A stretch of 64,000 nt of DNA from Gemmatimonadota bacterium. Lineage in GTDB: Bacteria > Gemmatimonadota > Gemmatimonadetes > Palauibacterales > Palauibacteraceae. The notes under the pieces are model-generated. The model saw only the letters and a program-made list of their open reading frames with translations, had not been told where the DNA came from and searched no databases. The translations under genes and the position numbers were made by a program. This document shows positions 10,014 through 58,537 of this stretch, piece by piece. The stretch spans positions 331 through 64,330 of the forward strand of contig JAGWBR010000013.1 in the NCBI GenBank assembly GCA_021295785.1, given 5' to 3'. The first letter of the stretch is position 1, and each line of letters starts with the position of its first letter.

Positions 10014-10805
10014 TCACTGACGCAGAAGGATGAACCGCCTGTGAAGGGGCTCAACCGGCCGCGCGTTCATCGGATACAGCGCCGCGAAGGCATCGACCTG
10101 AGACTGGGACACCGAGATCGACTCGGTCATCACTACCCAGCTCACTACCTCGGAGCAGGGAGGAGTTGTCAGGGAGCCGGCGTACCGGAAAAAGCTGCTT
10201 GCTTCCGGCAGGAAAGCAGTCGGGTCGAGCCCGGTGAGCGGCGAAGACGAGGCTCCGCCACCTGGGATGGCATCCCATATGCTCTGGGTGGTGGCATGGG
10301 CATCGCCCACATCCATGAAGACGCCGATCACCGCAAGGTCGCCCTCCTCAGCCTGATGCACAAAATGCACCTCCATGGGCGAGCTCGTCCCCTCGGCCGT
10401 GTGTTCGCTCGGCAGATGGAAGTGAAACTGTAGGAGGGCGAACTGCCGGCCTTCCAGCGTAATCGAACTCCCTTCGGCCATGTTGACCTGAATGGTGTGC
10501 CCGTTGTCCACCACCTGTGCCTCCGCCGGCTGCCACTGGATTTCCAGCCCATTCCCACCAACGGAAATCGCACCCGTCAGATCGATCGGGGACTGTTGTA
10601 CACCGGCGTCACAGGCCGCGAAGGCCGGGTCCAGTTGCCCCCACACTTCAGTGCCGGTGTCACCTTCATAGCTCCAGTGCACTTCGCCCTGCCCTCCGCC
10701 CTGTCCATGCTCCACGTGAGCCTCCTCCGGTGCCTCCGGCCGGCAGCCGTACGACGCGACGATAAGGTGGCTCATCACCAAGCCGCTAAGTGTAACAAGT
10801 CGCAT
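10014..10805 (-). CDS. Alpha-class carbonic anhydrase, secreted
   Basis: Alpha-CA hallmarks are present: HWSY, QSPIDL, GHTIQV, QFHFHLPSEH, EVHFVH (three zinc His) and GSLTTPPCSE. There is an N-terminal signal sequence with Cys. Confidence 0.93.
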   Translation of the reverse strand: MRLVTLSGLVMSHLIVASYGCRPEAPEEAHVEHGQGGGQGEVHWSYEGDTGTEVWGQLDPAFAACDAGVQQSPIDLTGAISVGGNGLEIQWQPAEAQVVDNGHTIQVNMAEGSSITLEGRQFALLQFHFHLPSEHTAEGTSSPMEVHFVHQAEEGDLAVIGVFMDVGDAHATTQSIWDAIPGGGASSSPLTGLDPTAFLPEASSFFRYAGSLTTPPCSEVVSWVVMTESISVSQSQVDAFAALYPMNARPVEPLHRRFILLRQ

Positions 10806-23242: not shown

Positions 23243-23247
23243 GCACC

Positions 23248-24606: not shown

Positions 24607-25016
24607 GCCCCGAAGCCGTGGGTGCCCCGATGGTGTCGGTTGAGCTGCGCGAAGTTGCATTCGCGAGGTCAGGCGACAAGGGCGACACCGCCAATGTGGG
24701 AGTCGTGGCGCTTGACCCGTCGCTGTATCAGGCCCTGGCCAGGGAGCTCACCGTCGCTCGGGTGAAAGCCCACTTCAGGGGTGTGTGCACGGGCAATGTG
24801 GAGCGTTTTGAGCTTCCCCGACTGAACGCAATCAACTTCCTCCTCCACAACTCTTTGGGGGGAGGGGGGACGGGTTCGCTGATGCTGGACGCCCAGGGCA
24901 AGACTCTCTCGACCGCGATGCTGCGAATGCGAATCAACATTCCCCGGACGGTCCTGGAGTCGTGGCGCGCCCGGTCGGGAACCTTGGCCGGCACTGCGGC
25001 CGGAGCTCAACAATGA
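24603..25016 (+). CDS. Small AtuA-partner protein (DUF4387-like)
   Basis: The start overlaps the AtuA stop. The sequence FARSGDKGDTANVGVV...NFLLHNSLGGGGTGSL fits the small protein that normally follows AtuA homologues. The start could instead be the ATG at 24630. Confidence 0.7.
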   Translation: MSPEAVGAPMVSVELREVAFARSGDKGDTANVGVVALDPSLYQALARELTVARVKAHFRGVCTGNVERFELPRLNAINFLLHNSLGGGGTGSLMLDAQGKTLSTAMLRMRINIPRTVLESWRARSGTLAGTAAGAQQ

Positions 25017-43517: not shown

Positions 43518-45265
43518 TGCCGCGGCCCGGCCTGGTGCTGGCGTGCAGCCTGTTCGGCGCCGCGGCTTGCGGAGAAGGGGACGCCCCGGCGAATGAGGTA
43601 CCCGAATACGCCGTGGGGCGATCGGTCTATGCGACCGACGCCATTCAGGCGGTGTCCACCAGCATCAGGCTGGAAGACGTGACCCAGGAATGGGCAGTCG
43701 CGTTCCGCCACGCGACGGGAGCGTTCGGCGAGAAGTGGATGCCCGAGACGATGGGCAGCGGCGTGGCGATTTTCGACTACGACGGCGACGGGTGGCCGGA
43801 CCTGTATTTTGTGAATTCGACAGGGTGGGAAGGGCGCGGCGAAGACCGCGGGGCGGGCCCGCGGTTGTATCGAAACCGGTTTGGCGACGGCCCCGGTGCC
43901 GAGCCCGGCTTCAGCGACGTGACCGCCGAAGCCGGGCTCGGCGCCTGGGCGGCGGACTACGACGGCGACGGAGACCAGGACCTGTACGTGACTGCTGTCG
44001 GCGACAACAGGTTGTACCGGAACGACGGTGGGCGGTTCACCGATGTCACCGCCGTGGCAGGGGCAAAAGGCAACGGCCCGGGAGCCGCGGACCCGGCTTG
44101 GTCCACAGCCGCCGCATGGTTCGATGCCGACCGAGACGGCTGGCTGGACCTCTTGGTTTGCAACTATGTGGACTGGACCCCCGAGACCGATCTGTTCTTC
44201 AGTCGCGACGGGGTGAACAAGTCGTACGCGACGCCCGAGGAATACGAGGGCGAGTCGTGCCGGCTGCTCAAGAACGACGGCAGCGGCAAGTTCACCGACG
44301 TTACAGAGACCGCGGGCCTGCTGAACGCGGAAGGGAAGTCGCTCGGCATCGCGGTTGACGACTTCAACGACGACGGGTGGCCTGACGTGGCCGTGGCCAA
44401 CGATACCTACCCCAACTTCCTCTACATCAACCAGGGCGACGGCACTTTCGCTGACGCGGGCCTCGACGCGGGCATTGCATTCGACAGGTCGGGCAGGGCG
44501 CGTGCGGGAATGGGGATCGACGTTGCCGACATCACGAACCGCGGACAACTCTCCATAGCCATCGGCAACTTCTCGAACGAGGCCGTGTCGTTGTACACGG
44601 CAATCGGGCCACTGACCTTCCAGGATCTGGCGGGCACGGCGGGGCTGACGCGGCCGACCCTCCTGCCGCTGACCTTCGGGCTCCGGTTCGCGGACCTGTC
44701 AAGCGATGGCAACGTCGATCTTGTGCTGGGCAACGGACACATTGAACCCGAGATACGCCGGGTGCAGGGGGACGTCGATTTCGAGCAGGCTCCGATCCTG
44801 TTCCAAAACGACGGGCGCGGGAAGTTCATGGACGTTGGGTCCGGAGTCGGCGGCGGATTTGCCGAACCGATCGTGGCGCGCGGTGTTGCGACGAGCGACC
44901 TGGACCGCGACGGCGATCTGGACCTTGTGTTCACGGCGAACGGGGGCGCGCCCAAGGTGCTTCGGAATGACACCGCCCCGCCCGGCGCATGGGTACGAGT
45001 GCGGTTGCGGGGCAGCGCGCCCAACTTCCATGCGATTGGCTCGATTGTGAAGGTGTTTGCCGGCGGGGTCGCCCGGCGCTTCTACGTCGGAGTGTCGGGT
45101 TCTTATCTGTCTCAATCAGAAACCAATCCGGTACTGGCCGGCCTGGGCGACGCTGTGCAGGCGGACAGTATTTCGGTGCGGTGGCCAGATGGAGAGACGA
45201 CAATGACGGGTCCTGTAGCGGCCGGTACGCAGATCGAGATCCAACAACCGGGCGGAGGACGGTGA
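43517..45265 (+). CDS. CRTAC1-type lipoprotein (FG-GAP/VCBS repeats plus ASPIC/UnbV domain)
   Basis: The start forms a TGATG overlap with the upstream stop. Lipobox FGAAAC. Six D.D.DG..D calcium-type repeats are present (FDYDGDGWPDLYFVN, ADYDGDGDQDLYVTA and others). The C-terminal segment is GSYLSQSE...VRWPDGE. Confidence 0.88.
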   Translation: MPRPGLVLACSLFGAAACGEGDAPANEVPEYAVGRSVYATDAIQAVSTSIRLEDVTQEWAVAFRHATGAFGEKWMPETMGSGVAIFDYDGDGWPDLYFVNSTGWEGRGEDRGAGPRLYRNRFGDGPGAEPGFSDVTAEAGLGAWAADYDGDGDQDLYVTAVGDNRLYRNDGGRFTDVTAVAGAKGNGPGAADPAWSTAAAWFDADRDGWLDLLVCNYVDWTPETDLFFSRDGVNKSYATPEEYEGESCRLLKNDGSGKFTDVTETAGLLNAEGKSLGIAVDDFNDDGWPDVAVANDTYPNFLYINQGDGTFADAGLDAGIAFDRSGRARAGMGIDVADITNRGQLSIAIGNFSNEAVSLYTAIGPLTFQDLAGTAGLTRPTLLPLTFGLRFADLSSDGNVDLVLGNGHIEPEIRRVQGDVDFEQAPILFQNDGRGKFMDVGSGVGGGFAEPIVARGVATSDLDRDGDLDLVFTANGGAPKVLRNDTAPPGAWVRVRLRGSAPNFHAIGSIVKVFAGGVARRFYVGVSGSYLSQSETNPVLAGLGDAVQADSISVRWPDGETTMTGPVAAGTQIEIQQPGGGR

Positions 45266-48200
45266 TGCCACGCCCCAGGGTTTCCGCGGGGTGCGGCCCC
45301 GGGCCATCGTGCCGGAGCCTCTGGCGCGCCGCGGGAGTCTCGGTGCTCTTACAGGCGTGCGGCGGCGACGCGCCGGTGCCCGACCTACCTCTTTCTGACT
45401 TGTTGACGATCCGCGCACAGGCCGACGCGGCGTTGCAGCAGGACAGATTGGACGATGCCCGGGCAGATTACTCGCGACTGGTCGATCTGACTCCCGAAGA
45501 GGCAGCCGGGTGGGCCGGACTGGCATTCGTGGCCCTCAAGTCCGGTGACCTGGACCAGGCTTCCGAACATTTGACCGAAGCCCGGCGGCGTGCCCCGGAC
45601 GCGCCCGATCTGATCCTGGCGCTGGCGCGAATTCGAGTGCTGGAAGGCGACGCCGGGCAGGCTCGGTCCCTACTGGACGAGAGCCTGAAAGCCGACTCCA
45701 CACATGTGCCGTCCCTCTGGGCCCTGGCATCGCTTGAAGCCGGTGCGGGCCGGCGGGCCGAGCGCGCGGAGCTGCTGCGCAGGGCGCTGGAGTCATCACC
45801 CGGGAACCTGGCCCTGCGCGTCGCCCGGGCTGACCATTTTCTGGAAGGCGCGGCGTCTTCCCCGTCCCGAGAGGCAGATGCGGCCCTCGCCGAACTGGAG
45901 ATGTTGCGGCAGGTGGCCCCGGATTTCGGGCTGCTGGCGTTGCCCTGGTACGAGGAGGTGGTCGAGAGTCTAAGGGACGTCGGGACCGCTGCCGCCGCGG
46001 GCGACGTGCCCGCCGGCCTCGTGCAGCGGGCCAGGGGCGCGTTTGATGAATTCAAGTCGGTGTTCGAGCTGACGCCGGCATACCAGGAGGGCTTCCAGGA
46101 GCTGGCCGAGCCGCCGTCCACCCTGGCCGGGGTGCCTGAACTGGACTTCAGTTTCCTGGTCTCACTCGCGGTGCGGGAGCCCGCGGCAGTGCTGGAGGCG
46201 CTGCGCTTTACCGAGGCTTCAGAGCTGGCCGGGTTGGTCGAGATCTCGGCTGGTTTGGGCACGGCACCGCGGGAGAGTTCGACCGGTGACCGCGCGGAGG
46301 GCGGGGCGGCTTCGATTGTAGCGGGCGACTACGACGGCGACGGTGACGAAGACCTGCTCTGGTTGCGGGGAGGAGAACTCAGGGTTCTTCGTGTCGATTT
46401 TGGCAGGTTCGTGGATGCTACCTCCGAGGGCGGGGATCTGGCAGGCACCGAATTTCCCGGTGCCTCGGAGGCCCGGTGGGTTGACCTGGATGACGACCGC
46501 CGTCTGGACATCTGGGTGGCGGGGGCTGAAGGATCCGCAGCGCTCCGCAACGCTTCCGCGGGGAGATTCGAGTCGGTCGGCGGTGGAGCGGTCGCGGCAT
46601 CCGGGTTGGTCGGTCGCGCATTGTTTGCCGACCTTGACCATGACGGAGATCTGGACGCGTTCGAGGCCCGCGAAGGCCCGGACGCGCTACACCGAAACAA
46701 CGGCGACTGGACCTTCACCGAAATGGGGGCCACTTTCGGCCTGGCGGGTCCGCCCGGTGCGGTCGGCACGGACGCGGCCTTTGGCGACGTAGACGACGAC
46801 GGGGACACTGATTTGGTAGTGGCCGAGGCCGGCGGCGGGATCCGGATCATGGACAACCTCAGGGGCAGCCGGTTCGGCGACGTGTCGGGCCGGATTTCGG
46901 GGAGCCCGGGGGCAGGCGTTTCCGGACCGGCCGGCGATGCCTGGGCGGTGGCGCTTGCGGACGTCAACCACGACGGGAAGCTGGATCTGGCGGTCGCCTC
47001 GCCGGTGCCTGCAACAGCAGGCGGCGCGGCGACTCCGGGCGAACCCGGATACACCGTGACGATCCTGTTGCAACAACCTGACCGGACCTTCGCCCCCGGG
47101 GCAGGGGATGCCCAAATGGCACTGGGTGCCCGGCCGGCCGCCATGCAGTTCATTGATTTTGACAACGACGGCAGCCAAGACCTGGCGGTAGCCCGGGGCG
47201 AGGCCGGCCTGGCGCTGTTTCGAGGACGTGGGGACGGCTCGTTCGAAGACGCCTCGCGTTTCCTGCCGCCCGAGACTCCCGGCGTGGTTACCGGCCTGGA
47301 GGCCTTTGACTACAACGAAGACGGCGACATCGACCTGGTTCTGCTGGACGGTGAAGGGCGTCCCGTGCTGCTCCGCAACGACGGCGGGAACGCGAACCAT
47401 TACATGCGGCTCGACCTGACCGGCTTGGGGGAGGGGAGTCGCAAGAACAACAGGTTCGGCATCGGAGCACGGATTGAAGTCCGGGCCGGCGATTCCTACC
47501 AGATGCTGACCCAGACCCGGCCCCGCGTACTTGTTGGCCTGGGACCGCGCCTCAAGGCCGACGTGGTTCGGGTGCACTGGCCGAACGGAGTCGTTCAGGA
47601 CCTGTATTTCCCCGGCACCGACCAGGACCTGATAGAGCAGCAGACCCTGAAGGGTTCATGCCCGATGTTGTTCCTTTGGAACGGCGAGGAGTTCGAATTC
47701 GTTGGCGACGTGCTCTGGAAGAGTGCCCTGGGTATGCCGCTCGGGATCTTGGGCGGCCGGGCGCAGGCGTTTGCCCCGGCGTTCCCGTCGCAGGAATACC
47801 GCCGCCTCCCGCCCGGAGTGCTCCGGCCCCGCGACGGCCGCTACGAGATGCGGATAACCGAAGAGCTCTGGGAGACGATCTACGTGGACGGCGTTCAGCT
47901 GGTCGCGGTGGACCACTCCGACTCTGTTGAGGTGTTTGTGAACGAGGTTTTTGTTCCCCCGGCTCCGGTAGAACTGGATTTGTGGAGGGCGGGCACCAGG
48001 CATCTGCCGGTCAGCGCCACGGACCAGGCGGGCCGGGATCACCTGGCCGCCCTCTCAACCAGGGACTTCGCATTCGTCGGTTCGCTTCCCCTGGGTCGTT
48101 ACCAGGGGCTGACCGATCCCCATGAGCTGGTGCTGGATCTTGGTCCCCGGGCGGCTTCCGGCGACGTCACGCTCTTCCTGACCGGGTGGATCTTCCCGAC

Positions 48201-49026
48201 CGACGCCAGCATCAACGTGGCCATGTCCCAAACCGAAGAGTACGCACCGCATTTCCCGGCGCTGGACGTAACGGGGCCGGACGGGGAGTGGGTCGAGGCA
48301 GTGCCCAACCTCGGGTTCCCGTCAGGGAAGGACAAAACGGTGATCGTTGACATGCGGGACCTGTGGGCCGGGCCGGACCGCAGGGTCCGGGTGCGCACGA
48401 ACCTGATGGTTTACTGGGACGAAGCGTTCTTCACCACCGGCCCGCGGAGCCCGCGGGAGGGGGAAACCGTGGTCACCGCCCTGTCTCCTTCGGAAGCCGA
48501 GCTCCGTTACCGCGGTTTTTCACGCGAGTTCAGGAAGGGTGGACGGTACGGGCCGCACTGGTTCGATTACACCGAAGTGAGCACCGCACCCAAGTGGCGC
48601 GACCTGTTCGGCGCGTACACCCGCTACGGGGATGTTCTCGAGTTGGTGCAAGCCGGCGACGATCGCTACGTGATTCAGAACGCAGGGGACGAAATCGCAC
48701 TCTCGTTCCCCGTGGACGGGTTCCCGGCGTTGCCCCACGGGTGGGTGCGGACGTTCTTGATTTACACCGACGGATGGGTCAAGGACGGCGACCTGAACAC
48801 CGCCACCGGCGAGCGCTCGGGACCACTGCCGTTCCGAGCGCTCGCCGTGTACCCCTACGACCCCGCCGGAGTCGCCGGGGTCGGCGAGTCGGGCATGCCG
48901 GCGGCGGGCGGCCCTGAGGCCGCGTACACGGCCGACCCCGCCCGGAGAGAGGCCATGGAGCGTTTCAACACGCGTGGCGTGGTGCCCCGGATTTCCGGGC
49001 CCGACCACCTCCCCCCGCCCGGATAG
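45265..49026 (+). CDS. Large lipoprotein: TPR, FG-GAP repeats, ASPIC/UnbV, and a roughly 450-aa C-terminal domain of unknown function
   Basis: The ATG at 45265 shares one base with the upstream TGA. Lipobox LLQAC. TPR-like helices occupy about aa 40-260. Seven D.D.DG..D repeats follow. UnbV-like segment is FGIGARIEVRAG...VRVHWPNG. The region from about 47650 onward has no motif I recognise. Confidence 0.85.
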   Translation: MPRPRVSAGCGPGPSCRSLWRAAGVSVLLQACGGDAPVPDLPLSDLLTIRAQADAALQQDRLDDARADYSRLVDLTPEEAAGWAGLAFVALKSGDLDQASEHLTEARRRAPDAPDLILALARIRVLEGDAGQARSLLDESLKADSTHVPSLWALASLEAGAGRRAERAELLRRALESSPGNLALRVARADHFLEGAASSPSREADAALAELEMLRQVAPDFGLLALPWYEEVVESLRDVGTAAAAGDVPAGLVQRARGAFDEFKSVFELTPAYQEGFQELAEPPSTLAGVPELDFSFLVSLAVREPAAVLEALRFTEASELAGLVEISAGLGTAPRESSTGDRAEGGAASIVAGDYDGDGDEDLLWLRGGELRVLRVDFGRFVDATSEGGDLAGTEFPGASEARWVDLDDDRRLDIWVAGAEGSAALRNASAGRFESVGGGAVAASGLVGRALFADLDHDGDLDAFEAREGPDALHRNNGDWTFTEMGATFGLAGPPGAVGTDAAFGDVDDDGDTDLVVAEAGGGIRIMDNLRGSRFGDVSGRISGSPGAGVSGPAGDAWAVALADVNHDGKLDLAVASPVPATAGGAATPGEPGYTVTILLQQPDRTFAPGAGDAQMALGARPAAMQFIDFDNDGSQDLAVARGEAGLALFRGRGDGSFEDASRFLPPETPGVVTGLEAFDYNEDGDIDLVLLDGEGRPVLLRNDGGNANHYMRLDLTGLGEGSRKNNRFGIGARIEVRAGDSYQMLTQTRPRVLVGLGPRLKADVVRVHWPNGVVQDLYFPGTDQDLIEQQTLKGSCPMLFLWNGEEFEFVGDVLWKSALGMPLGILGGRAQAFAPAFPSQEYRRLPPGVLRPRDGRYEMRITEELWETIYVDGVQLVAVDHSDSVEVFVNEVFVPPAPVELDLWRAGTRHLPVSATDQAGRDHLAALSTRDFAFVGSLPLGRYQGLTDPHELVLDLGPRAASGDVTLFLTGWIFPTDASINVAMSQTEEYAPHFPALDVTGPDGEWVEAVPNLGFPSGKDKTVIVDMRDLWAGPDRRVRVRTNLMVYWDEAFFTTGPRSPREGETVVTALSPSEAELRYRGFSREFRKGGRYGPHWFDYTEVSTAPKWRDLFGAYTRYGDVLELVQAGDDRYVIQNAGDEIALSFPVDGFPALPHGWVRTFLIYTDGWVKDGDLNTATGERSGPLPFRALAVYPYDPAGVAGVGESGMPAAGGPEAAYTADPARREAMERFNTRGVVPRISGPDHLPPPG

Positions 49027-49052: not shown

Positions 49053-49844
49053 TCAGGTGTTGTCGTGCGAGCTGGCGTGGAGTGCGAAGGCGGCGCCCTG
49101 CGGGTCCATGGCGTGCAGGATCATGTCGCCGCCCGGAACTGACATGGGATCGACGGTGATTCTGCCGCCTGCCGCTGCGATTTTCCCGGCAGCGGCCTCA
49201 ACGTCCGCGACCCGGATGTAGAGAGCCCAGCAGGGAGGGACCGGCATCTGGTCGTTGCGGTTCATCATCCCGCCCAGCTTCACCCCGCCCCGCCCGAACA
49301 TCTGGTAGGCTCCGGCTGGTCCCATGTCCATGCGGTTTGTCTTCTCCCAACCGAACAGCTCCGTGTAGAACGAGCACGATGCCTCCATGTCGGTCGAGAT
49401 GAGCTCGTGCCATGAAACCTCGCCCTGCTGCCGGTGTCCGTCGTGCCCGGGGGTCTCGTCATCGGGCTGGATTGCCATGAAAACCGGGCCGCCGGGATCT
49501 TCGATAACGGCCATCCGGCCGACCCGAGGTATCTCGAGCCGATTCACGACCTTGCCCCCGAGCTCCTCTGCCCGGGCGGCGGTAGCGTCGACGTCGGGTG
49601 TCGAGACGTAGGCGAGCCAATGGTTCGGCACACCGTGCTCAACCAGTTCGGGAGGCATCACCATCATCCCGGCCACGGCCTTCCCGCCGTTCAGGAAGTT
49701 CGTATAGGGGATATCCTCGCACGCGCTCGACTCCCAGCCGGTGACCTGGCTATAGAACTTCGAAGCACCGTCAACGTCGCTTGTCAGCAACTCGTACCAG
49801 CAAAACCTCCCCAGGGGAGTTGCCGTCGTGGGAGAATCTGGCAT
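49053..49844 (-). CDS. VOC (glyoxalase/bleomycin-resistance/dioxygenase) superfamily protein, two tandem domains
   Basis: Two copies of the pattern F.WYEL.T.D....FY....GW.......Y..F......VAGMM......W..Y..V.DVDA....A...GG are present. Confidence 0.85.
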   Translation of the reverse strand: MPDSPTTATPLGRFCWYELLTSDVDGASKFYSQVTGWESSACEDIPYTNFLNGGKAVAGMMVMPPELVEHGVPNHWLAYVSTPDVDATAARAEELGGKVVNRLEIPRVGRMAVIEDPGGPVFMAIQPDDETPGHDGHRQQGEVSWHELISTDMEASCSFYTELFGWEKTNRMDMGPAGAYQMFGRGGVKLGGMMNRNDQMPVPPCWALYIRVADVEAAAGKIAAAGGRITVDPMSVPGGDMILHAMDPQGAAFALHASSHDNT

Positions 49845-50159
49845 GGTGGTTCCTTCGGTTTGGGCCGGGGGGCCGAAAAGACGAGCCCCGGTCGCTCACT
49901 CGAAACCCCCGGGGCGGGTTGACGCGGTAGTGTAAAGCGGCGGGCGGTCGGCTGCTACGAAGTTCGATATTCCCGTTCACGGCCGAGACCTCGATTGACG
50001 GCCCGCTACAGCCGGGGCGGAGGTGTTTCGGCAGCGCGGCTCGTGCCGATTCACATTGCGGGATGGTGTAGTACGGTAACCACCTGACAGTAGGCCGATG
50101 GAACAGCGGCGGCTAATCGGTGTCTCTGAGGGAGGAGGCATCCAATGGAGGAGGTTACC

Positions 50160-50264
50160 ATGATCGGGATCGATCTGGCAAAGCGCAGCTTTCAGGTACA
50201 CGGGGCCACGGCCGACAGGTCGGTCCTGACGGCCCCGCGGGACTTGCCGATATGGGCGGGTTAG
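50160..50264 (+). pseudogene. Relic of the 5' end of an IS110-family transposase gene (34 codons)
   Basis: GGAGGAGG precedes the ATG. MIGIDLAKRSFQVHGATADRSVL matches the conserved DEDD-transposase N-terminus (IGIDLAK..FQVHG). The frame then diverges and stops at 50262-50264. The rest of the gene is absent. Confidence 0.7.
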
Positions 50265-50405
50265 TGTGAATCGCGCGAACCGCATTAGTTTGTGTGCAGG
50301 AGGGTCAACGAACCCGGATCACGATTTGAGGGGCCATTGTAGCCGGGACCTCCCAGCTACAAGATCCCTTGTCCGCGGGGTGCGGCTTCGAAAGGAATCC
50401 CAGGA

Positions 50406-51515
50406 ATGATTCCGAAACTGAATGAACCCAGGCTCCGCGGCATCGATGAGCTGCCGCCGTACCCCGAGGGCTGGTACTTCGTCGTGCACCGCAAGACTCT
50501 TCTCGAGAAGCGGTTGATCGAGAAGACCTGGATGGGCGAGGACATCATCGCCTGGTGCGACGAGCAGGGTCGCATCTGCGTGGCCGGCGCGTACTGTCCG
50601 CACCTGGGGTCGCACCTGGGACCGACTGCCGGGGGGGTGGTGCGCGATGGCTGCATCGTGTGTCCATTCCACGGGTTCGAGTTCGACGCGACCGGGCAAT
50701 GCGTGGCTGTACCCCATGCCCCGGCTCCCAAAGCCGCGAAGCTGGAGGTCTACGAGACGGCCGAGATCCTCGGTATGGTCTTCGCCTGGTGGGGCAGCGG
50801 CGACCTTGCACCGCAGTGGCACCTTCCGGAGGAACCGCCCACCGGTACTGACTGGAGCAGCGTGTGCTCCACTACGCTGCGCTTCCGGGGTCATCCGCAG
50901 GAAACCACGGAGAACTCCGTGGACCTGGAGCACCTGGACTACACCCACGGCTATCACGACGTAGAACCGACCGCTCCCTTGACAATCGACGGTGCCTACC
51001 TGAAGAGTTGCTTCGACTTCAAGAACCTTCGCACGGTCGCGGGTGTGATCAACATCCACTCCGAAATCTCGGCCGTCACCCACGTCCATGGGTTGGGGTT
51101 CTCGTTCGTCGAAATCCACGAAAAGACGGTCGGCATGGACGCAAGAATGTGGGTCCTCGCGACGCCCGTGGGGCACATGCAACTGGAACTGACCCTGGCT
51201 ACCCAGGTACGGGAAATCCGTAGACCAGGGCGATTTTTCGCGGGCCTCGGCTTCCTGCCGGTGCCGCTGCGCCACAGGCTGATGACTCGCCTTTTCCTGT
51301 CGGAGGAGAGGCGCTTCGTCCAGCAGGATGTCGTCATATGGCGGCGGAAGCAGTACAGGGTTCCGCCGCGGCTGTCCCGGGCCGACGGCCCGATCGGGAA
51401 ATACCGCCTTTATTGTCGGCAGTTCTATCCGGAGTTACCATCACGGATCGAGTCGACGGGCCGAATCGGCCTGGCGGACGTGAGCGGGGGTCCGAAGAAG
51501 GAGAGACGAGCATGA
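50406..51515 (+). CDS. Rieske [2Fe-2S] non-haem-iron oxygenase (single alpha-type subunit, KshA/PAO-like)
   Basis: Rieske ligands are CPHLGSHL...CPFHGFEF. The mononuclear-iron motif is ENSVDLEHLDYTH (D-x2-H-x4-H). Confidence 0.88.
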   Translation: MIPKLNEPRLRGIDELPPYPEGWYFVVHRKTLLEKRLIEKTWMGEDIIAWCDEQGRICVAGAYCPHLGSHLGPTAGGVVRDGCIVCPFHGFEFDATGQCVAVPHAPAPKAAKLEVYETAEILGMVFAWWGSGDLAPQWHLPEEPPTGTDWSSVCSTTLRFRGHPQETTENSVDLEHLDYTHGYHDVEPTAPLTIDGAYLKSCFDFKNLRTVAGVINIHSEISAVTHVHGLGFSFVEIHEKTVGMDARMWVLATPVGHMQLELTLATQVREIRRPGRFFAGLGFLPVPLRHRLMTRLFLSEERRFVQQDVVIWRRKQYRVPPRLSRADGPIGKYRLYCRQFYPELPSRIESTGRIGLADVSGGPKKERRA

Positions 51516-51546
51516 GATTCGGTGACCAGGCAGGAGCGCGAGACTG

Positions 51547-53574
51547 ATGGCTGTAGCTGCAAAAGAGGTGACGGTCGAGCACCTGAGCCTGCCCGAAGAG
51601 CTCATCCTGATGCTCCTCAACGAGGAGAACGGCTATTTTCACCAGATTGCCGGCTGGCAACTGAACTGCGCTGTCATCGGCGCCGTCCTCGCGGAGCTTT
51701 CGCTTCGGGAGCGCATCGACACGGATCTTGAATCGCTGTTTGTCGTGGACGAGACGGAAACGGGCGACCCCGCGCTGGACCCGATCCTGAAAGAGATTGC
51801 CAGGGAACCACGAAAGCGAAACGCCCGGTACTGGATCGAACGGTTCGCGCTCCGCGCGGAATCCATCATCGATCTCACTCTGGACCGTCTGGTGCAAGAG
51901 AAGATTCTGGAGCACCACGAAGGCGAGTTCTGGACGTTGGCGCGTACCACCTGGCTGCCCGGCGCGCACAGTAGACCCCAGGAGGTTTCCGTCGGTCATT
52001 TGATCAAGACGCGGATCAGCAACTTGATTTTTTCCGACATGATTCCCGATCCGAGAAGTGTCATCGTTGTATGCCTCGTCAACACCTGTGACGTTTTTCG
52101 CTTCATGTTCAAGCTCGACGAAGAAGCCGAAGAGCGCATCAATTTCATCTGCAAGATGGATCTCATCGGCCGGTCCATTGCCGAAGCAGTCATCCAGAAC
52201 GCTTCGGCGCCATTGCTTCGACGTGCACACCTGACGAAGCGAGTCCCGGCCATCAAGCTTCGGGAGCTGCTGCGCAGTCCCCACGTGCGGGACGGCAACC
52301 TTCCGGCGCTCTTCGCCGAACTGGCAAAGAAGCATGGCCCTGTATACCAACTCAGTCCGCCGTTTTCAGAGCCGTTGACCTTCCTCGCGGGTCCAGAGAT
52401 AAACCATTGGGCGAACCGTCACGGGCGGATGTACCTGAGGGCCAGGGACTACTTTGCCAACTTCGAGAAAGTGTATGGCGCGTCGGGCGTCCTGCCGTCC
52501 CTCGATGGAGCCGATCATTTCCGACTGCGCAAGGCCATGGCACCGGCGTATTCGCGCAGAAGGCTGCAGAGTCAGGTGGATCAGCTCTACCAGCATGTGC
52601 GTGGCTTCATGGCCGACTGGAAAGTGGGCGAATCGTACTCGGCACGGCGCCTGTGTCGGCGCATGATCAACGCCCAGATCTCGCCCATGTCCGTCAGCGT
52701 CGATTCGCAGGATATCTTCGACGATCTGATGAAGTACAAGGAGAGGGCGCTCACGGTCCACATGTTGAGGCTTCTGCCGGAGTTCACGCTGAAGACTCCG
52801 GGCATGAAACGGAGGGCGAGGGCGATCGACACGCTTCTGGGTCGTGTGCAGAGCGTGCATACGCCCGCCCAGCGGGCCGGTTGCCCCCGGAACCTGGCGG
52901 ACGACCTCCTGAGCCTCAACAGCAGCGATCCGCAGCTGGTACCGGAATCCAATCTGCGGTTCGCTTTGTCGGCGGCGCTGATTGCCAGCGTCTACCTTGG
53001 CGACGCGTTCAGCCTGGTGGTCTACGCCATGGCGTCACGGCCGGATTACTACGCGAGAATCCGAGCCGAAGCCGATGCTCTATTCGGGAACGGCGACCCC
53101 GCCGGGGATGCCTTCACACCGGCCGCAGTCGATATCACTCACCGGTTCGTGACCGAATGCCTGCGCATGTATCCGATCGTGCCGGTGTCCGTGCGGAACG
53201 TCATGAATTCCTGCGTGGTGGAAGGCTACGAGCTGCCCGTGGGTGCAAGGATCAATATCGCCCAGACGGCCCCGCACTACATGGAGGATGTCTTTCCTGA
53301 CCCGTTCAAGTTCGATATTGACCGCTACCTTCCGCCGCGCTGTGAGCACCGCAGTCCCGGTTACGCGCCCTATGGTGTCGGAACGCACCGATGTCTCGGT
53401 TTCCGATGGATGGAACTTCAACTGATGATCAACGTGCTGATGATCGCCCACCATTTCACTCTCGAGGTGGCTCCGGCGAACTTCAAGTTCCGGTTCGCCC
53501 CGTTCCCGTCGCTGAAGCCGAGCAAGAAGCTGAAGTTCCGCGTCGCCGAGCAGGTCCGCAAAGTAGTGGCCTGA
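51547..53574 (+). CDS. Fusion protein: N-terminal GPP34/GOLPH3-like domain plus C-terminal cytochrome P450
   Basis: The N-terminal roughly 210 aa contain LSLPEELILMLLNEENGYFHQIAGWQLNCAVIGAVLAELSLRERID, a GPP34 hallmark. The C-terminal roughly 440 aa carry ExxR (ECLR), DPFKFDIDRY and the Cys-ligand loop YGVGTHRCLG. It is one uninterrupted 675-codon ORF. Confidence 0.85.
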   Translation: MAVAAKEVTVEHLSLPEELILMLLNEENGYFHQIAGWQLNCAVIGAVLAELSLRERIDTDLESLFVVDETETGDPALDPILKEIAREPRKRNARYWIERFALRAESIIDLTLDRLVQEKILEHHEGEFWTLARTTWLPGAHSRPQEVSVGHLIKTRISNLIFSDMIPDPRSVIVVCLVNTCDVFRFMFKLDEEAEERINFICKMDLIGRSIAEAVIQNASAPLLRRAHLTKRVPAIKLRELLRSPHVRDGNLPALFAELAKKHGPVYQLSPPFSEPLTFLAGPEINHWANRHGRMYLRARDYFANFEKVYGASGVLPSLDGADHFRLRKAMAPAYSRRRLQSQVDQLYQHVRGFMADWKVGESYSARRLCRRMINAQISPMSVSVDSQDIFDDLMKYKERALTVHMLRLLPEFTLKTPGMKRRARAIDTLLGRVQSVHTPAQRAGCPRNLADDLLSLNSSDPQLVPESNLRFALSAALIASVYLGDAFSLVVYAMASRPDYYARIRAEADALFGNGDPAGDAFTPAAVDITHRFVTECLRMYPIVPVSVRNVMNSCVVEGYELPVGARINIAQTAPHYMEDVFPDPFKFDIDRYLPPRCEHRSPGYAPYGVGTHRCLGFRWMELQLMINVLMIAHHFTLEVAPANFKFRFAPFPSLKPSKKLKFRVAEQVRKVVA

Positions 53575-53628
53575 CATCCGGTCCCGACCGGGCCGCTTGC
53601 GAGATCCCGGAGCCCCGGGCCGTCCTGG

Positions 53629-56600
53629 TCAGGAAACCGCGGGCGTGAGGGCTTGACCGAAGGCAGTGCCGCTACGGCGCGCAAGCCAGCGAAGGCGGAG
53701 CGAAGACAGCGCCGGCACCAGGAACATCAGGATGGCGGTGGTGAAAAGGATGCCGCAGCCGACCGAGGCCGAGAAGGGCACGAAGAACTGCGCCTGGATG
53801 GCGTCTTCGAGAATGAGGGGCGTGAAGCCGAGGAAGGTGGTCAGCGAGGTCAGCATGATCGGACGAAAACGCCCCTTGGCGCCCTCGATGATCGCCTCTC
53901 GCTCCGGGAAGCCTTCTTCGAGTTCCTGATCGATGAAGTCGATCATCACCAGGGAATCGTTCACCACGACTCCGGCAAGGCCGAAGAGCCCGATGAAGGA
54001 CTCCGAACTCAGGGCGATGCCCAGGATCCAGTGGCCGAGGATCACCCCGATGAACCCGAACGGGATGACGGCCATGATGATGAACGGCTTGGTGTACGAG
54101 CGCAGCGGGATAGCCAGCAGCGAGAAGATCAGGATCATGGCGATCCCGAACCCGGGGCCCAGCGCGTTCATTGATTCCAGCTGCTGCTGCTGTTCACCGC
54201 CAAAGGAGTAGGTCAGTTCAGGGTCCTCGGCGATCACCGCCGCAAGGATGTCGTCTTCCAGAATGCCGTTGGCCTGCCCGCCGGAGATCACCGCCGGATC
54301 CACATCCGCGGTAACCCTGACGACGCGCTGACCGTCCTGGCGATGGATGGCGGTCGGCGACCTGCCCGAACTCAGGGAAGCCACCCGGCTCACCGGGACC
54401 TCGGCGCCTGTCGGCGTCCGGACCAGGGCGCTCTCGATGTCGGTGATCGAGTTGCGTTGTTCCTCGGGAAGTCGCACGTACACACGAACCTCGTCCCGGC
54501 CCCGCCGCACCCGCAGGGCTTCCGCGCCGAAGAACGCGGCTCGCGTCTGCACGGCGAGGTCGTCGAGGGTCAGGCCCAGGGTTCGCGCTTCGGGCAACAG
54601 GCCGAGCTGGATCTCGGGGATGCCGGGGGTGACATCGGAGCGTATGTCGTGGATGCCTCCCACCTCGCGGAGACCATCAACGACCGATGTTGCGATCGCG
54701 GGGAGGCGCTCCGGATCCGGATGCGACAGCACGGCCTCGACTGGGTTGCCCAGGTCGTAGATCTCGCCGCTGATGGTGAGCCCGCGCACATAGGGCAGGA
54801 CACCCACTTCCTCGCGCCACGCCTGCACGACGTCTCCCGTGGGAATCCGCCGGTGCTGCGCGTCCAGGAGTTTGAACGCGATGGTGGCGACATTGGCTTC
54901 CGGGTTCAGGTTGGGATTGGGACTGAGTCCCCCTCCCTCGACGCGCGGCCGTTGGCCGACGGTGATCGTGACGCCTGAGAGCAGCGGAAGCGCGTCGTCG
55001 GGCCGATCTTCGGAGACGCGTTCGATGGCCCGGTGACCGGCCGCTTCCAGTTCGCGGGCCACCTCGTAGGTTCGCTGAGCCGTCGTCCCGTCGGGCATTT
55101 CCAGGGTGGCGGTTGCGAAATCCCCCTCGACCTTTGTGGCGAAGGTGAACGAAACGATGCCTGCCGGCAGCATGGCGCCGCAGAGGATGAGCAGTGCGAC
55201 GGCCGCCGAGAGCGTCAATCCGGGTCGATCCGTAGCGAAACTCACCCCGCGATGCAGCGGACCCTGTATGAACCTGCTCAACTGCGAATCGACACGACCC
55301 TGAATCCGGGCCACGAATCGGTCCAGGCGCGATCGGGGCGCCCAGTGCGGGCCGTGAAGATGGTGGGACAGGTGGTTGGGAAGCACCAGCAGCGACTCGA
55401 TCAGCGAAATCACCAGCATCGCGATGACGATGGTCGGCAGCGCCTTCCAGGTCTGTCCGACACCTCCGGGAATGAAGAGCAGAGGGGCGAACGCGACGAC
55501 CGTGGTCAGCACCGCAAAGATAAGAGGCACCTTGATCCGCCGGGCGCCGCGGATCGCCGCGTTGACCCCTGGCGTCCCCTTCATTCGTTCCAGGTGGATG
55601 TGTTCGGAGACTACAATCGCATCGTCCACCACGATCCCGATGGCGAGCACGAACGAGAACAGCGAGACCGCGTGGATCGCCAAGTCGAACGCCATCATTA
55701 CGGCCAGGGCGCCGATGCCCGAAACGCCGAGACCGACCGCTACCCAGAAGGCGAGTCGGAGTTCGAGAAACAGTCCCAGGGCGAGCAGCACCAGCAGGAG
55801 CCCGAGAAGACCGTTCTTCAACAGGATGGCGGCGCGCTCCTCGAAGGCATCGGATTCGTCGTTCCAGATGGTGATGCTCACCCCGTCCGGGAGTGAAGGG
55901 GCCACCTCGTCGGCGACGTGCTGGCGAACGGCGCGCGCTACAGTCATCACCTTCTCGCCGTCGGCCCTCGAGACCTCGACGAAGGCGGCCGGCAGACCCT
56001 GGTGCCGGACAATCAGATCCGTGGCCTGGAAGCCATCTTGCACCTCGGCGATATCACCCAGAGTGACGACCGTGCCGTCACCCCGGCTGAGGAGGACGAT
56101 CTCCTCGAAGTCCTGTTGATCGTAGCTCTGCCCCAGGGTGCGCACCCGGACCTGGGACTGCTCCGTGTCGATGCTGCCGGCGGACAGGTCCAGGGAGCTG
56201 CGGCGAATCGTGTTCGCGACATCGGTCAGGTTGAGCCCGAGGGCTCTGAGCCGCTGCAGGGGCACTTCGATCGAGATCTCGTAGTTTCGCACGCCGCTCG
56301 TCTCGACGTGGGAGACGTTGGGCAGCGCAGCGAGTTCGTCCTCGACGCGATATGCGAGTTCCTTCAACGAACGCTCGCTGACATCGCCATACACGATCAG
56401 CCGCATCACGCTCTGGGCGTTGGTCATCTCCCTGATCTGGGGCCGTTCGGCTTCGCCCGGGAAAGTCTGAATGCGGCCGACGGCCGCTTCGACATCGGCC
56501 AGGGCATCGTTCATGTCCGTGCCCGAACGCATTTCCACCCTGACCGACGCCATGCCCGGGGCCGCCACGGACTTGACCGCCTTCACGTCGCCCAGCCCGT

Positions 56601-56847
56601 TGACCTGGTCCTCGATCTTGGCGACGATGGCCTCCTCCACCTCTTCCGGGGTGGCGCCCGGATAGGCGACGGAGACCTCCACCTGGTTGAAGGGCACGGT
56701 GGGCCAAGCTTCCAGCTCGAGTCCGAATAGCGATGCCACTCCCGCGACGAGGATGCCGAACATCAACAGGTTGGCCGCAACGCTGTTGCTCGCCATGTAG
56801 GCGATGGGGCCGGGAGCTTCTGCGTGACTGCGTGGTTTGCGACTCAT
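53629..56847 (-). CDS. RND-superfamily efflux permease (AcrB/HAE1-like, 1072 aa)
   Basis: Typical 12-TM layout with two large periplasmic loops. The N-terminus is YMASNSVAANLLMFGILVAG. The conserved TM4 region is AIGIVVDDAIVVSE. Confidence 0.92.
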   Translation of the reverse strand: MSRKPRSHAEAPGPIAYMASNSVAANLLMFGILVAGVASLFGLELEAWPTVPFNQVEVSVAYPGATPEEVEEAIVAKIEDQVNGLGDVKAVKSVAAPGMASVRVEMRSGTDMNDALADVEAAVGRIQTFPGEAERPQIREMTNAQSVMRLIVYGDVSERSLKELAYRVEDELAALPNVSHVETSGVRNYEISIEVPLQRLRALGLNLTDVANTIRRSSLDLSAGSIDTEQSQVRVRTLGQSYDQQDFEEIVLLSRGDGTVVTLGDIAEVQDGFQATDLIVRHQGLPAAFVEVSRADGEKVMTVARAVRQHVADEVAPSLPDGVSITIWNDESDAFEERAAILLKNGLLGLLLVLLALGLFLELRLAFWVAVGLGVSGIGALAVMMAFDLAIHAVSLFSFVLAIGIVVDDAIVVSEHIHLERMKGTPGVNAAIRGARRIKVPLIFAVLTTVVAFAPLLFIPGGVGQTWKALPTIVIAMLVISLIESLLVLPNHLSHHLHGPHWAPRSRLDRFVARIQGRVDSQLSRFIQGPLHRGVSFATDRPGLTLSAAVALLILCGAMLPAGIVSFTFATKVEGDFATATLEMPDGTTAQRTYEVARELEAAGHRAIERVSEDRPDDALPLLSGVTITVGQRPRVEGGGLSPNPNLNPEANVATIAFKLLDAQHRRIPTGDVVQAWREEVGVLPYVRGLTISGEIYDLGNPVEAVLSHPDPERLPAIATSVVDGLREVGGIHDIRSDVTPGIPEIQLGLLPEARTLGLTLDDLAVQTRAAFFGAEALRVRRGRDEVRVYVRLPEEQRNSITDIESALVRTPTGAEVPVSRVASLSSGRSPTAIHRQDGQRVVRVTADVDPAVISGGQANGILEDDILAAVIAEDPELTYSFGGEQQQQLESMNALGPGFGIAMILIFSLLAIPLRSYTKPFIIMAVIPFGFIGVILGHWILGIALSSESFIGLFGLAGVVVNDSLVMIDFIDQELEEGFPEREAIIEGAKGRFRPIMLTSLTTFLGFTPLILEDAIQAQFFVPFSASVGCGILFTTAILMFLVPALSSLRLRWLARRSGTAFGQALTPAVS

Positions 56848-57065
56848 TGTGCCGGGTCAGCCTCGGTGGACGGATTCCGGGTTGTCAGGGGTACCGCGCA
56901 CCCTCGTAGGATACTCAACGGGTAGGAGTCATGCACCATGACGGGACCGTGTCGCGCTTCCACTCCGTCGCGAATCTCGTGGAGGTATACCGCCTCGTAC
57001 TTCAGCGACCTCCACAGCCGCTCGTGTGTGGACGCCCCCTGGTGGGCAAGCCCGGATTCAGAAAC
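56848..57065 (-). pseudogene. Relic of an IS3-family (rve integrase-core) transposase 3' end
   Basis: The minus ORF contains HERLWRSLKYEAVYLHEIRDGVEAR, the conserved ERLWRSLKYE...EAR block near the C-terminus of IS3/IS407-type OrfB. Flanking sequence is out of frame or degenerate. The relic abuts the RND start codon. Confidence 0.65.
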
Positions 57066-57289
57066 CGAGGCGGTGGCAGCTTGGTCAGGTACCCATCTTC
57101 GATATCCTGCCCAGCCTCGGCTTGCCGCCTGTGGTGTGCTGCCGGGGCACGAGACGGAGCCAGGTCGAGAAGTCACGCCCGCGGAACCGGCAGGCAACCA
57201 CACGTGCCCCGCGGTTTTCCTATCTCCAGAATGGCGGCCCACCAGACGGGCCGGCGGCCACCACTCGTAATGAACCCAGGAGGGGAAGA

Positions 57290-58537
57290 ATGATCAGGAA
57301 TCTGACTGGACGGAGAACAAGGGCAGACGGGATTTCGTCACCGGCGGCGACAGCGGGCCTGGCTCTGGCACTGGCGCTGGCATTCGCTGCGGACGCGACC
57401 GCGCAGCAGCGGAGGATGCTGGTTGAAGCCCCCCGCGTGTTGGAGGAACTGTCAGTTGTGTATGCGGGATCAGGATCCTACCTGGGGGTGATGATCGCCG
57501 AGGTTGGCTCGGAAGGGGCAGAGAGCACGGGGGCCGACTACGGCGCATTCGTTTCCAGCGTGGTTGAGGACGGCCCGGCAGCCGCTGCCGGCCTTCAGGC
57601 CGATGATGTGATTGTGTCTTGGAACGGCGAACGGGTGGAGGGAATTGCCCAGCTGAGGAGACTGCTCAGGGAGACGCCGCCGGGCCGCACCGCCGAGCTC
57701 GGAGTAATGCGGGGTGGGAGCACCATGACCATACAGGTGGAGCTGGGCGAGCCCTCGGAGCGCGCTGCCACAACCGTTTACGCGACAATGGAACGCGCTG
57801 CCGCCGCCGAAAGGCAGGCCCGGGAAGAATTGCAGCGGGTCCGTGAGGAGGCGGTGGAAGAAGCGTTGTCGGTCCGGGAGCGTCACGGAGTGGTGCAGGA
57901 GCTCCGCGAGCGCCTCTTGGACGCGCAGGGCGACCTTCGGGTCATGGACCTTCCGGTCATGCTTGAGGGTTTGGACTCACTCCACCATCTCGTTGAGGGA
58001 CTCGGCGACTACGCTCTGTTTGCCCCCCCGGCCGGCGTCTCGGCGCAACGGCTGGGCGACCAGCTGGCCGGGCACTTCGGAGTTGAGGGAGGTTTTCTGG
58101 TAACGAGCGTCCGCGAGCAGTCGCCCGCTGCAGAAGCTGGTCTTCAGGCGGGGGACGTTATCATTTCAATCGACGGGCACGACGTTACGGATCGCAGCGG
58201 AGGGTCCGGCTGGTTGGTGTGGAGGTTAACGGAAGAAGCGGAGGAAGATTCCCGGGAGGGCGGCGGGAACATGGAAATCCGAATAGTCCGCGACGGAGCC
58301 GAGCATACCGTTACAATCGAGGTACGATCCAACGAGACGCGGAGGGGTTTCTGGCCGCCCGGCGGCGGTGCCATGAACATGCGGGTGCCTTCGCTCCAGT
58401 TTCGGACCCCCGGAGGTCTGTCGCGGAGGCCGTCGCTCCAGCTTCTGCCGCACGTCGAGGCGGGCATTCACCGCCCTCGGGTGTTGATCCGCGGGCGCCC
58501 CCCGGTGGTCAGGGTCCGGGCAATCGGAACCAGGTGA
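57290..58537 (+). CDS. Secreted protein with two PDZ domains separated by a helical linker; no protease domain
   Basis: AGGAGGGG lies upstream of the ATG at 57290. Signal peptide is AGLALALALAFAADATA. PDZ blocks are GSYLGVMIAEV...VVEDGPAAAAGLQADDVIVSWNG and GFLVTSVREQSPAAEAGLQAGDVIISIDG. Confidence 0.8.
   Translation: MIRNLTGRRTRADGISSPAATAGLALALALAFAADATAQQRRMLVEAPRVLEELSVVYAGSGSYLGVMIAEVGSEGAESTGADYGAFVSSVVEDGPAAAAGLQADDVIVSWNGERVEGIAQLRRLLRETPPGRTAELGVMRGGSTMTIQVELGEPSERAATTVYATMERAAAAERQAREELQRVREEAVEEALSVRERHGVVQELRERLLDAQGDLRVMDLPVMLEGLDSLHHLVEGLGDYALFAPPAGVSAQRLGDQLAGHFGVEGGFLVTSVREQSPAAEAGLQAGDVIISIDGHDVTDRSGGSGWLVWRLTEEAEEDSREGGGNMEIRIVRDGAEHTVTIEVRSNETRRGFWPPGGGAMNMRVPSLQFRTPGGLSRRPSLQLLPHVEAGIHRPRVLIRGRPPVVRVRAIGTR

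Follow-up and report, generated by a model that had tools for sequence, protein, structure and literature searches.

Within a 64,000-nucleotide stretch of DNA from a bacterium of the phylum Gemmatimonadota (GenBank assembly GCA_021295785.1, contig JAGWBR010000013.1, positions 331 to 64,330; the window, in what follows), one open reading frame (ORF) joins a GPP34/GOLPH3-fold domain to a cytochrome P450. We propose, at a probability of roughly 55%, that this GPP34-P450 fusion works in the cytoplasm as a peripherally docked P450 and modifies a sterol or a steroid-like triterpenoid, together with a KshA-like Rieske oxygenase and an RND-superfamily pump. The GOLPH3-fold domain, whose pocket for phosphatidylinositol 4-phosphate (PI4P) is lost and whose hairpin is kept, would serve as a peripheral docking module for the membrane, the substrate or a protein, standing in for the N-terminal anchor of eukaryotic P450s. 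The P450 domain would oxidise or rearrange a membrane-resident substrate, the KshA-like enzyme would perform a second oxygenation, and the pump would carry the product out of the inner membrane, in that tentative order. The putative exporter is of the AcrB type in the window and, in most relatives, an HpnN-like MMPL protein with sterol-sensing matches; a sterol C-24 methyltransferase (SMT) may act in the same module in about half of them.

An earlier note on this DNA, made from its letters alone, had read the fusion as a membrane-lipid-directed, partner-independent P450 of uncharacterised architecture. The real fusion, the intact P450 and the lost acid-alcohol pair survive from that reading, while PI4P docking, the novelty of the architecture and the argument for partner independence do not. 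The conserved context of Rieske, SMT and RND-pump genes, absent from that note, is what points to sterols.

The fusion itself is secure. As the note had it, 675 codons run in a single frame, and all the motifs by which the two halves had been recognised are present in the ORF. Pfam places GPP34 (PF05719; E=1.8e-32, profile positions 1-198 of 201) on residues 15-215 at 113.5 bits, against a cut-off of 29.1, and p450 (PF00067; E=2.4e-32) on residues 248-645 at 112.8 bits, against a cut-off of 22.8, so that both stand far above their thresholds. An assembly chimera or a frameshift joining two separate genes, an artefact that the note had wished to see checked, is excluded: an identical protein is encoded on two independent contigs, 120 protein clusters (at least 70% identity) match the window fusion in length and in both Pfam domains, and the ORF is intact, at about 675 residues, in 76 of the 80 species-level loci compared independently. 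The linker between the domains speaks against a chimera as well, being conserved to the point that L229 is invariant in orthologues and P234 nearly so, the latter remaining invariant across a wider family alignment that includes paralogues of 24-55% identity. Relatives at 65-84% identity occur in at least 218 species genomes from about ten phyla. The ATG is preceded by a GGAG about 9 nt to its 5' side, and the protein has neither a signal peptide nor a transmembrane segment, its hydrophobicity peak being the I-helix itself. A promoter and terminator scan of positions 49800-57400 returned no promoter-like sites and one terminator-like hairpin, located inside the ORF; a single such site is below the shuffle average.

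The genes that accompany the fusion were surveyed by clustering all ORFs within 10 kb on either side of it in the best 80 species-level loci from the at least 218 species genomes, a sample that takes in Gemmatimonadota, Latescibacterota, Rhodothermales, Chloroflexota/Dehalococcoidia, Nitrospirales, Alpha- and Gammaproteobacteria, Acidimicrobiia, Binatia and others. An RND-superfamily pump of some kind is present in 64 loci, a KshA-like Rieske gene in 56 and an SMT (Sterol_MT_C) in 40, and at least one of the three in 75. HpnN-like MMPL pumps with Sterol-sensing/Patched Pfam matches account for 45 loci and AcrB-type RND proteins for 21; these are counts from ORF clustering, used here because a tblastn census misses divergent MMPL genes and undercounts pumps. 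The SMT is the immediate neighbour of the fusion in 30 cases. ERG4/ERG24 genes and MPAB/Lcp-type oxygenase genes each occur in 7 of the 80 loci, and LolA-like and LppX-type lipid carriers are also recurrent. The housekeeping genes that flank these loci vary between phyla, which indicates that the neighbour genes travel as a module.

Two further arrangements recur in the same loci. LkcE-like FAD oxidases have homologues in 37 of the 80 (for example L064:8411-9799, plus strand, an amine-oxidase-fold protein that matches PDB 6f7l at E=4e-35); the gene often lies directly upstream of the fusion on the same strand and is absent from the window. Between fusion and Rieske gene, some Gammaproteobacteria and Gemmatimonadota metagenome-assembled genomes (MAGs) encode a eukaryote-like protein with Spondin_N and bacterial Ig-like domains (L040:11845-13071, plus strand) and an MPAB/Lcp-type oxygenase (L040:13105-14316, minus strand), both found also in L025 and L045.

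A connection to sterols comes from five Nitrospirales loci in which a sterol biosynthesis cluster adjoins the fusion. Three of them (L026, L061 and L063) contain the full series of fusion, one or more SMTs, a squalene epoxidase-oxidosqualene cyclase (SE-OSC) fusion, CYP51 and ERG4/24, with the CYP51 gene within 10 kb of the fusion; this CYP51 is genuine (E=5e-105 to M. capsulatus CYP51). The L036 locus ends within the SE-OSC gene, and L023 has an SMT, an SdmA-like gene and ERG4/24, with no SE-OSC or CYP51 in the stretch examined. SdmA-like Rieske proteins (407 bits) are encoded in L023, L026 and L061, and three Chloroflexota loci also have ERG4/24 less than 10 kb from the fusion. The sterol-cluster linkage holds for the orthologue group; the window itself does not have it.

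The gene order of L026 (SMT, small ORF, SMT, SE-OSC, CYP51, ERG24, SdmA) is that of genes 9-15 on the A. aerophoba scaffold JGIcombinedJ30088_10000835 (PMC10070321, Supplementary Data 1), whose SMTs alkylate sterols in vitro (PMC10070321). From synteny we predict a GPP34-P450 as gene 8 there; the scaffold is not among the 13 metagenome loci matched by the fusion, so that gene order is the only link. A search of the Brown 2023 supplement for P450, Rieske and the contigs of these loci found nothing, and a literature search for GPP34 with sterols, or for bacterial sterols with P450, Rieske and sponge, found nothing relevant. Steroid clusters of sponge symbionts are reported to have moved by horizontal transfer and to evolve under purifying selection (PMC9531527). 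In L026 (15078-18740, minus strand), as in L036, L061 and L063, SE (FAD_binding_3) and OSC (SQHop_cyclase N and C) form one ORF of 1135-1281 residues; in Supplementary Data 1 of Brown 2023, ERG1 and ERG7 match the same gene (PMC10070321).

In the window, the Rieske gene precedes the fusion on the same strand with a gap of 31 bp, and the two are probably co-transcribed. Its product finds its best PDB match in the 3-ketosteroid 9alpha-hydroxylase KshA (4qdc, E=1.8e-21), and its alignment to KshA retains the CxH..CxxH, HxxxxH and Asp ligands; this closeness to a steroid hydroxylase counts for the sterol reading. The idea that the protein is a mere electron donor to the P450 was rejected, as it keeps the KshA-type catalytic domain and iron ligands. 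On the other side of the fusion stands the AcrB-type permease gene, whose homologues (73-90% identity) are those that adjoin the fusion in the 21 AcrB-type loci, in Gemmatimonadota, Latescibacterota and Gammaproteobacteria; the Latescibacterota genes run HlyD, RND, fusion, all on one strand. No membrane-fusion-protein (MFP) gene adjoins the window permease. Upstream of the permease and overlapping it, a 132-residue ORF (region 53629-57242, minus strand) has no Pfam match.

Several observations weigh against the sterol proposal. The 64-kb window contains no SMT, OSC, CYP51 or ERG24 gene, and its AcrB-type pump has no sterol-sensing match; the sterol link for this copy consequently rests on orthology at 65-84% identity. 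Half of the loci are without an SMT within 10 kb, and the MMPL pumps match the Sterol-sensing/Patched models modestly (39-44 bits), an effect of general RND and sterol-sensing-domain (SSD) homology. The full-length AlphaFold2 (AF2) model, built on 61 orthologues, is poor (per-residue confidence, pLDDT, 60 overall and below 50 in the GPP34 half) since no sequence in its alignment is less than 69% identical to the query; it supports no statement on the domain interface or the active site, and we used it solely for a coarse Foldseek search with the P450 half. Two paralogous loci lack the expected company: L089 holds a member of the clade that shares the I-helix deletion described below, with no Rieske, pump or SMT neighbours, and in L087 (8001-11230) a paralogue with a canonical I-helix, P0138, has SDR and PhyH dioxygenase genes upstream and, downstream on its own strand, genes for a sulfotransferase and an acyltransferase, a setting that suggests lipid tailoring of another kind by the same architecture. 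Lastly, a KshA-like oxygenase with an efflux pump fits detoxification or catabolism of host steroids or terpenoids equally well.

This last alternative is the main functional rival. It would have the P450 and the KshA-like oxygenase hydroxylate host steroids or hydrophobic sponge metabolites and the efflux pump expel them, with sterol genes as neighbours in some lineages only, and what it fits best is the trio of Rieske, fusion and AcrB-type RND that makes up the window copy. KshA is a catabolic enzyme in actinobacteria, and the distant clade members L088 and L090 come with complete efflux operons, each with an outer-membrane efflux protein (OEP), an MFP and an RND pump. We nonetheless judge the rival improbable, given that the anabolic SMT recurs within 10 kb of the fusion, and directly beside it, in the numbers given above, that de novo sterol clusters stand right beside the fusion in Nitrospirales, and that the annotated conserved neighbours include no other steroid-degradation genes.

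The same two distant loci also inform the sterol reading. L088, a 41%-identical member of the deletion clade, again has an AcrB-type RND, OEP, MFP and KshA-like Rieske protein, a recurrence that we count for that reading. In L090 (1-9998), a TARA_SAMEA6039926 scaffold, two GPP34-P450 genes of the deletion clade flank the OEP-MFP-AcrB efflux operon; given this TARA scaffold, the published restriction of the long form to sponge symbionts may break down in distant clades. The association with pump and Rieske genes is deep in the deletion clade, and that with SMT and sterol clusters is documented for the orthologue group of the window. Domain content varies further in the family, with P0137 (872 residues) arranged as GPP34-GPP34-P450 and P0202 (444 residues) carrying two GPP34 stretches and no P450.

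The N-terminal half of the fusion is a genuine GOLPH3 fold, and the assignment is solid. A single-sequence phmmer search of the PDB with this domain gave a marginal match (Vps74, E=0.02) and a profile search was needed; a profile of 20 diverse N-terminal domains matched human GOLPH3 (3kn1) over the whole domain at E=2e-13 and Vps74 at about 1e-10. The AF2 model of the domain, computed from a diverse 20-sequence alignment, reached a pLDDT of 89 and a predicted template-modelling score (pTM) of 0.87, and it retains the projecting beta-hairpin at residues 121-131 (strands 121-124 and 128-131). All 8 significant Foldseek matches to this model in the PDB were GOLPH3 or Vps74, with template-modelling (TM) scores of 0.59-0.71, the best being GOLPH3 9qpq_B (E=4e-9, TM 0.71). 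Pfam, profile and structure searches having returned GOLPH3/Vps74 exclusively, the GPP34 identity proposed in the earlier note is borne out.

PI4P docking, which the note had mentioned for this fold in eukaryotes, is unlikely here. The PI4P pocket of GOLPH3 is formed by W81, R90, R171 and R174, positions at which alanine substitutions were made to test function (PMC2806290). A profile alignment pairs these residues with A35, I44, E105 and I108 of the window protein. In orthologues, position 35 is proline or alanine and position 44 is valine, isoleucine, alanine or methionine (n=61), while position 105 is glutamate and position 108 isoleucine in 60 of 61 each; none of the 61 has a basic residue at any of the three pocket arginine positions. 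The basic phosphoinositide pocket is therefore absent, and the replacement of its arginines makes PI4P docking unlikely. GOLPH3-type binding of Golgi glycosyltransferase tails or of COPI has no known bacterial counterpart.

The architecture has been described before: GPP34 with P450 was published in January 2025 (Microbiome) as GPP34_L, a monophyletic set of 656 proteins (PMC11706023). The earlier note's view of an uncharacterised architecture must therefore be given up in so far as the architecture is common and described, and it keeps its force in that biochemical characterisation is lacking. GPP34_L appears to have spread by horizontal transfer among bacteria; databases label the homologues of the fusion 'cytochrome P450'. 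The nearest genomes are Gemmatimonadota/Longimicrobiales MAGs, including the isolate-name series jk18x, SB06xx and RHO, which we take to come from sponge studies, and the closest relatives are probably sponge-derived MAGs of the same phyla as GPP34_L. Three things seem to be newly noted here, none having been found in the literature searched: the I-helix change particular to one clade, the disappearance of the PI4P pocket and the setting among sterol genes.

The paper that described GPP34_L proposes that GPP34 proteins, the P450-fused form included, are secreted effectors that bind host PI4P and block phagosome maturation (PMC11706023). GPP34_L is reported there from sponge symbionts only and as expressed in situ (PMC11706023), and the fold is truly that of GOLPH3 and Vps74, which bind PI4P (PMC2806290). 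We consider this explanation very improbable for the fusion: the pocket is non-basic in the manner just described; there is no signal peptide, the GPP34 domain beginning at residue 13-15; the domain to which it is joined is a strongly constrained haem enzyme that is intact; and the gene is operonic with a Rieske oxygenase, amid lipid-enzyme and pump modules. The paper left the binding residues and the GPP34_L flanks unexamined, contains no biochemistry and makes no mention of sterols (PMC11706023). The only published functional idea for bacterial GPP34 thus invokes a pocket that is unconserved in this large subgroup. The same authors report rare GPP34-Rieske and GPP34-ABC fusions (PMC11706023), of which the former fit a view of GPP34 as a module attached to the oxygenases of one pathway.

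In the P450 half, the ExxR residues E537 and R540 and the haem-ligating loop residue Cys616 are invariant across 63 family members, and the PERF-like segment is canonical. Among solved structures the nearest are those of CYP184A1 and M. capsulatus CYP51 (E about 1e-20 to 4e-23), with taxadiene hydroxylase and CYP102-type enzymes also among the nearest, all at about 20% identity. NCBIfam has no equivalog for this half; its CYP152 CypC model scores 17.3 bits against a cut-off of 600, which leaves no match at family level. The Cys loop is of normal length with no insertion; CYP74 enzymes carry an insertion there.

The I-helix departs from the canonical pattern. An acid-alcohol pair is typical of the P450 superfamily without being obligatory, and the earlier note had found none here. 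Three alignments agree with that observation, one residue off the register of the note's hand alignment: a MAFFT alignment of the 63 family members, an hhalign comparison of the orthologue profile with a canonical-paralogue profile (E=1e-140) and a phmmer alignment to CYP184A1 (7wzl). In each, AGxDT becomes A480-S481-V482-(gap)-Y483, so that the acid is deleted and tyrosine occupies the threonine position. A hidden Markov model alignment of the orthologue profile to CYP51 cannot be trusted in the I-helix, where it opens a gap of 5 residues, and the intra-family alignments were preferred. S481, Y483, G485 and D486 are invariant in the 61 orthologues, and a continuous helix is predicted for residues 467-497.

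An exhaustive search of representatives revealed a large superfamily, with 375 clusters (50% identity) at E<=1e-30, among them dozens of full-length GPP34-P450 paralogues (26-41% identity) plus related stand-alone P450s. Most of the 63 aligned members have the canonical A-G-(L/I)-(D/E/H)-T; A-S-V-(gap)-Y-L-G-D is found in the window protein and in its nearest clades, P0121, P0125, P0126, P0127 and P0129. On this distribution, the loss of the acid-alcohol pair is best described as a derived, strongly conserved trait of one clade and not of the whole family. A deleted acid, an invariant tyrosine and an invariant aspartate three residues on imply an altered mechanism of O2 and proton delivery, for which substrate-assisted oxygen activation, a Tyr483/Asp486 relay, and peroxide or isomerase chemistry are all candidates. 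For P450 enzymology, sister clades with and without the acid-alcohol pair provide a natural comparison pair.

The earlier note had gone further and taken the want of redox genes nearby as fitting partner independence. Its observation stands: Pfam detects no ferredoxin or reductase gene in the window (among non-overlapping ORFs of at least 100 residues plus the one 132-residue ORF), a six-frame scan of the window finds no ferredoxin Cys motif, and no ferredoxin or reductase is a conserved neighbour across the 80 loci. Recurrent ferredoxin-motif matches at about 12.2-12.6 kb in these loci were dismissed as artefacts, being short antisense frames inside the SMT gene. The conclusion drawn from the observation is not a discriminating one: the adjacent Rieske oxygenase depends on a non-local reductase too, and the cluster CYP51s are likewise without local partner genes.

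A redox-partner-independent enzyme, whether a peroxygenase or a hydroperoxide or epidioxide isomerase, acting on a membrane lipid in the manner of CYP74, CYP8A or CYP152, would fit both this absence and the derived, invariant loss of the acid-alcohol pair, and it is compatible with the sterol reading, for example by acting on sterol peroxides. We think it unlikely. The lack of local partners is shared with enzymes that need them, the CYP152 model and the Cys loop give no sign of kinship, and the nearest relatives, CYP51, CYP184 and CYP102, are partner-dependent monooxygenases. EryF, CYP158A2 and P450cin also lack the threonine and activate O2. For the fusion P450, chemistry that does not activate O2 is given a low probability.

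Taken jointly, the fusion, the KshA-like Rieske oxygenase, the SMT and the SSD-type or RND pump may form a horizontally mobile sterol-tailoring and export module of sponge symbionts, one that would make unusual oxygenated or alkylated sponge sterols or remodel them from host sterols. In this fuller picture, to which we assign somewhat less than even odds, the GOLPH3 fold would be a docking module for sterol, membrane or pump and not a PI4P reader, and Tyr483 and Asp486 in place of the Asp-Thr pair would support non-standard chemistry. The dating of the earliest animals draws on sponge sterols and their fossil steranes (24-isopropylcholestane and 26-methyl steranes), and the contribution of bacterial symbionts to these is disputed (PMC10070321, PMC9531527). 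If the proposal is right, a highly conserved and widely transferred P450/Rieske/pump module adds unrecognised steps to symbiont sterol metabolism. Combined, the altered I-helix, the missing PI4P pocket and the neighbouring sterol genes yield a hypothesis that is open to direct test and relevant to the debate on sponge sterol biomarkers.

Table 1. Coordinates, in the window, of the GPP34-P450 fusion, its parts and its two neighbours.
Feature	Position	Strand	Basis or remark
GPP34-P450 fusion ORF	51547..53574	+	675 codons plus stop; ATG start; single uninterrupted frame
GPP34/GOLPH3-fold domain, aa 15-215	51589..52191	+	Pfam PF05719, profile against PDB, AF2 model, Foldseek
Conserved linker between GPP34 and P450 domains, aa 216-247	52192..52287	+	Conservation in alignments
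Cytochrome P450 domain, aa 248-645	52288..53481	+	Pfam PF00067
I-helix, aa 467-497; motif A480-S481-V482-Y483-L484-G485-D486; Tyr483 codon 52993-52995	52945..53037	+	Alignments
Haem-thiolate loop YGVGTHRCLG, aa 609-618, canonical length	53371..53400	+	Motif, alignment
KshA-like Rieske non-haem-iron oxygenase, 369 aa	50406..51515	+	Pfam Rieske + KshA_C
AcrB-type RND permease, 1072 aa, convergent with fusion, 55-bp gap	53629..56847	-	Pfam ACR_tran E=9e-161

Elsewhere in the window, three consecutive large TPR/FG-GAP/ASPIC-UnbV proteins are encoded upstream of the module (39798-49026, plus strand); one has a weak MtrC/MtrF-like domain match, and the trio is not kept beside the fusion in other phyla. 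Positions 21620-25016 (plus strand) encode what resembles an acyclic-terpene-utilisation cassette, made up of a carboxyl transferase, AtuA and a protein with the AtuA ferredoxin-like domain, 'ferredoxin-like' being here the name of a fold and not of an Fe-S protein. The window also encodes a eukaryotic-type (alpha) carbonic anhydrase (10014-10805, minus strand; PF00194, E=6e-38) and two plus-strand ORFs of 1901 and 789 residues (1025-6730 and 6840-9209) that have no Pfam match at E<=1e-5.

Comparison with known systems sets the fusion apart on each side. The window protein belongs to GPP34_L, with the same two-domain order and length (PMC11706023); it differs from the effector envisaged there in its replaced PI4P residues, its lack of a secretion signal and its context of sterol enzymes and pumps. 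With GOLPH3 and Vps74 (3kn1, 9qpq, 2zih) the GPP34 domain has the fold in common, the beta3/beta4 hairpin included, at 15-18% identity; it differs in that W81, R90, R171 and R174 are unconserved, in a deletion of about 10 residues just before the R171 helix of GOLPH3, and in being fused to an enzyme. The sponge-symbiont clusters of Kelly 2022 (PMC9531527) and Brown 2023 (PMC10070321) come from the same organisms and present a transfer-prone ERG24-CYP51-OSC core with flanking SMT in an order like that of L026, whereas a second P450, GPP34 or a KshA-like Rieske protein does not figure in either paper (PMC9531527, PMC10070321). The window Rieske protein is not SdmA, the bacterial C-4 demethylase, since it scores 44.5 bits with the SdmA model (cut-off 600), at which true SdmA-like proteins reach 407.

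As for the P450 half, CYP51 (M. capsulatus 6mi0, 7jj1 and 7snm) is among its best sequence and structure matches. The possibility that the fusion is a CYP51 orthologue was rejected: identity is about 20%, the fusion scores 76-85 bits where the neighbouring true CYP51 reaches 355 (L063), and the I-helix reads ASV-YLG against AGHHTS in CYP51. CYP74, CYP8A1, CYP152 and EryF likewise have no Asp/Glu-Thr pair above the haem, and beyond the superfamily they bear no sequence relationship to the fusion P450, in which the change consists of a one-residue deletion and a tyrosine, in a family that otherwise reads AG(L/I)(D/E)T.

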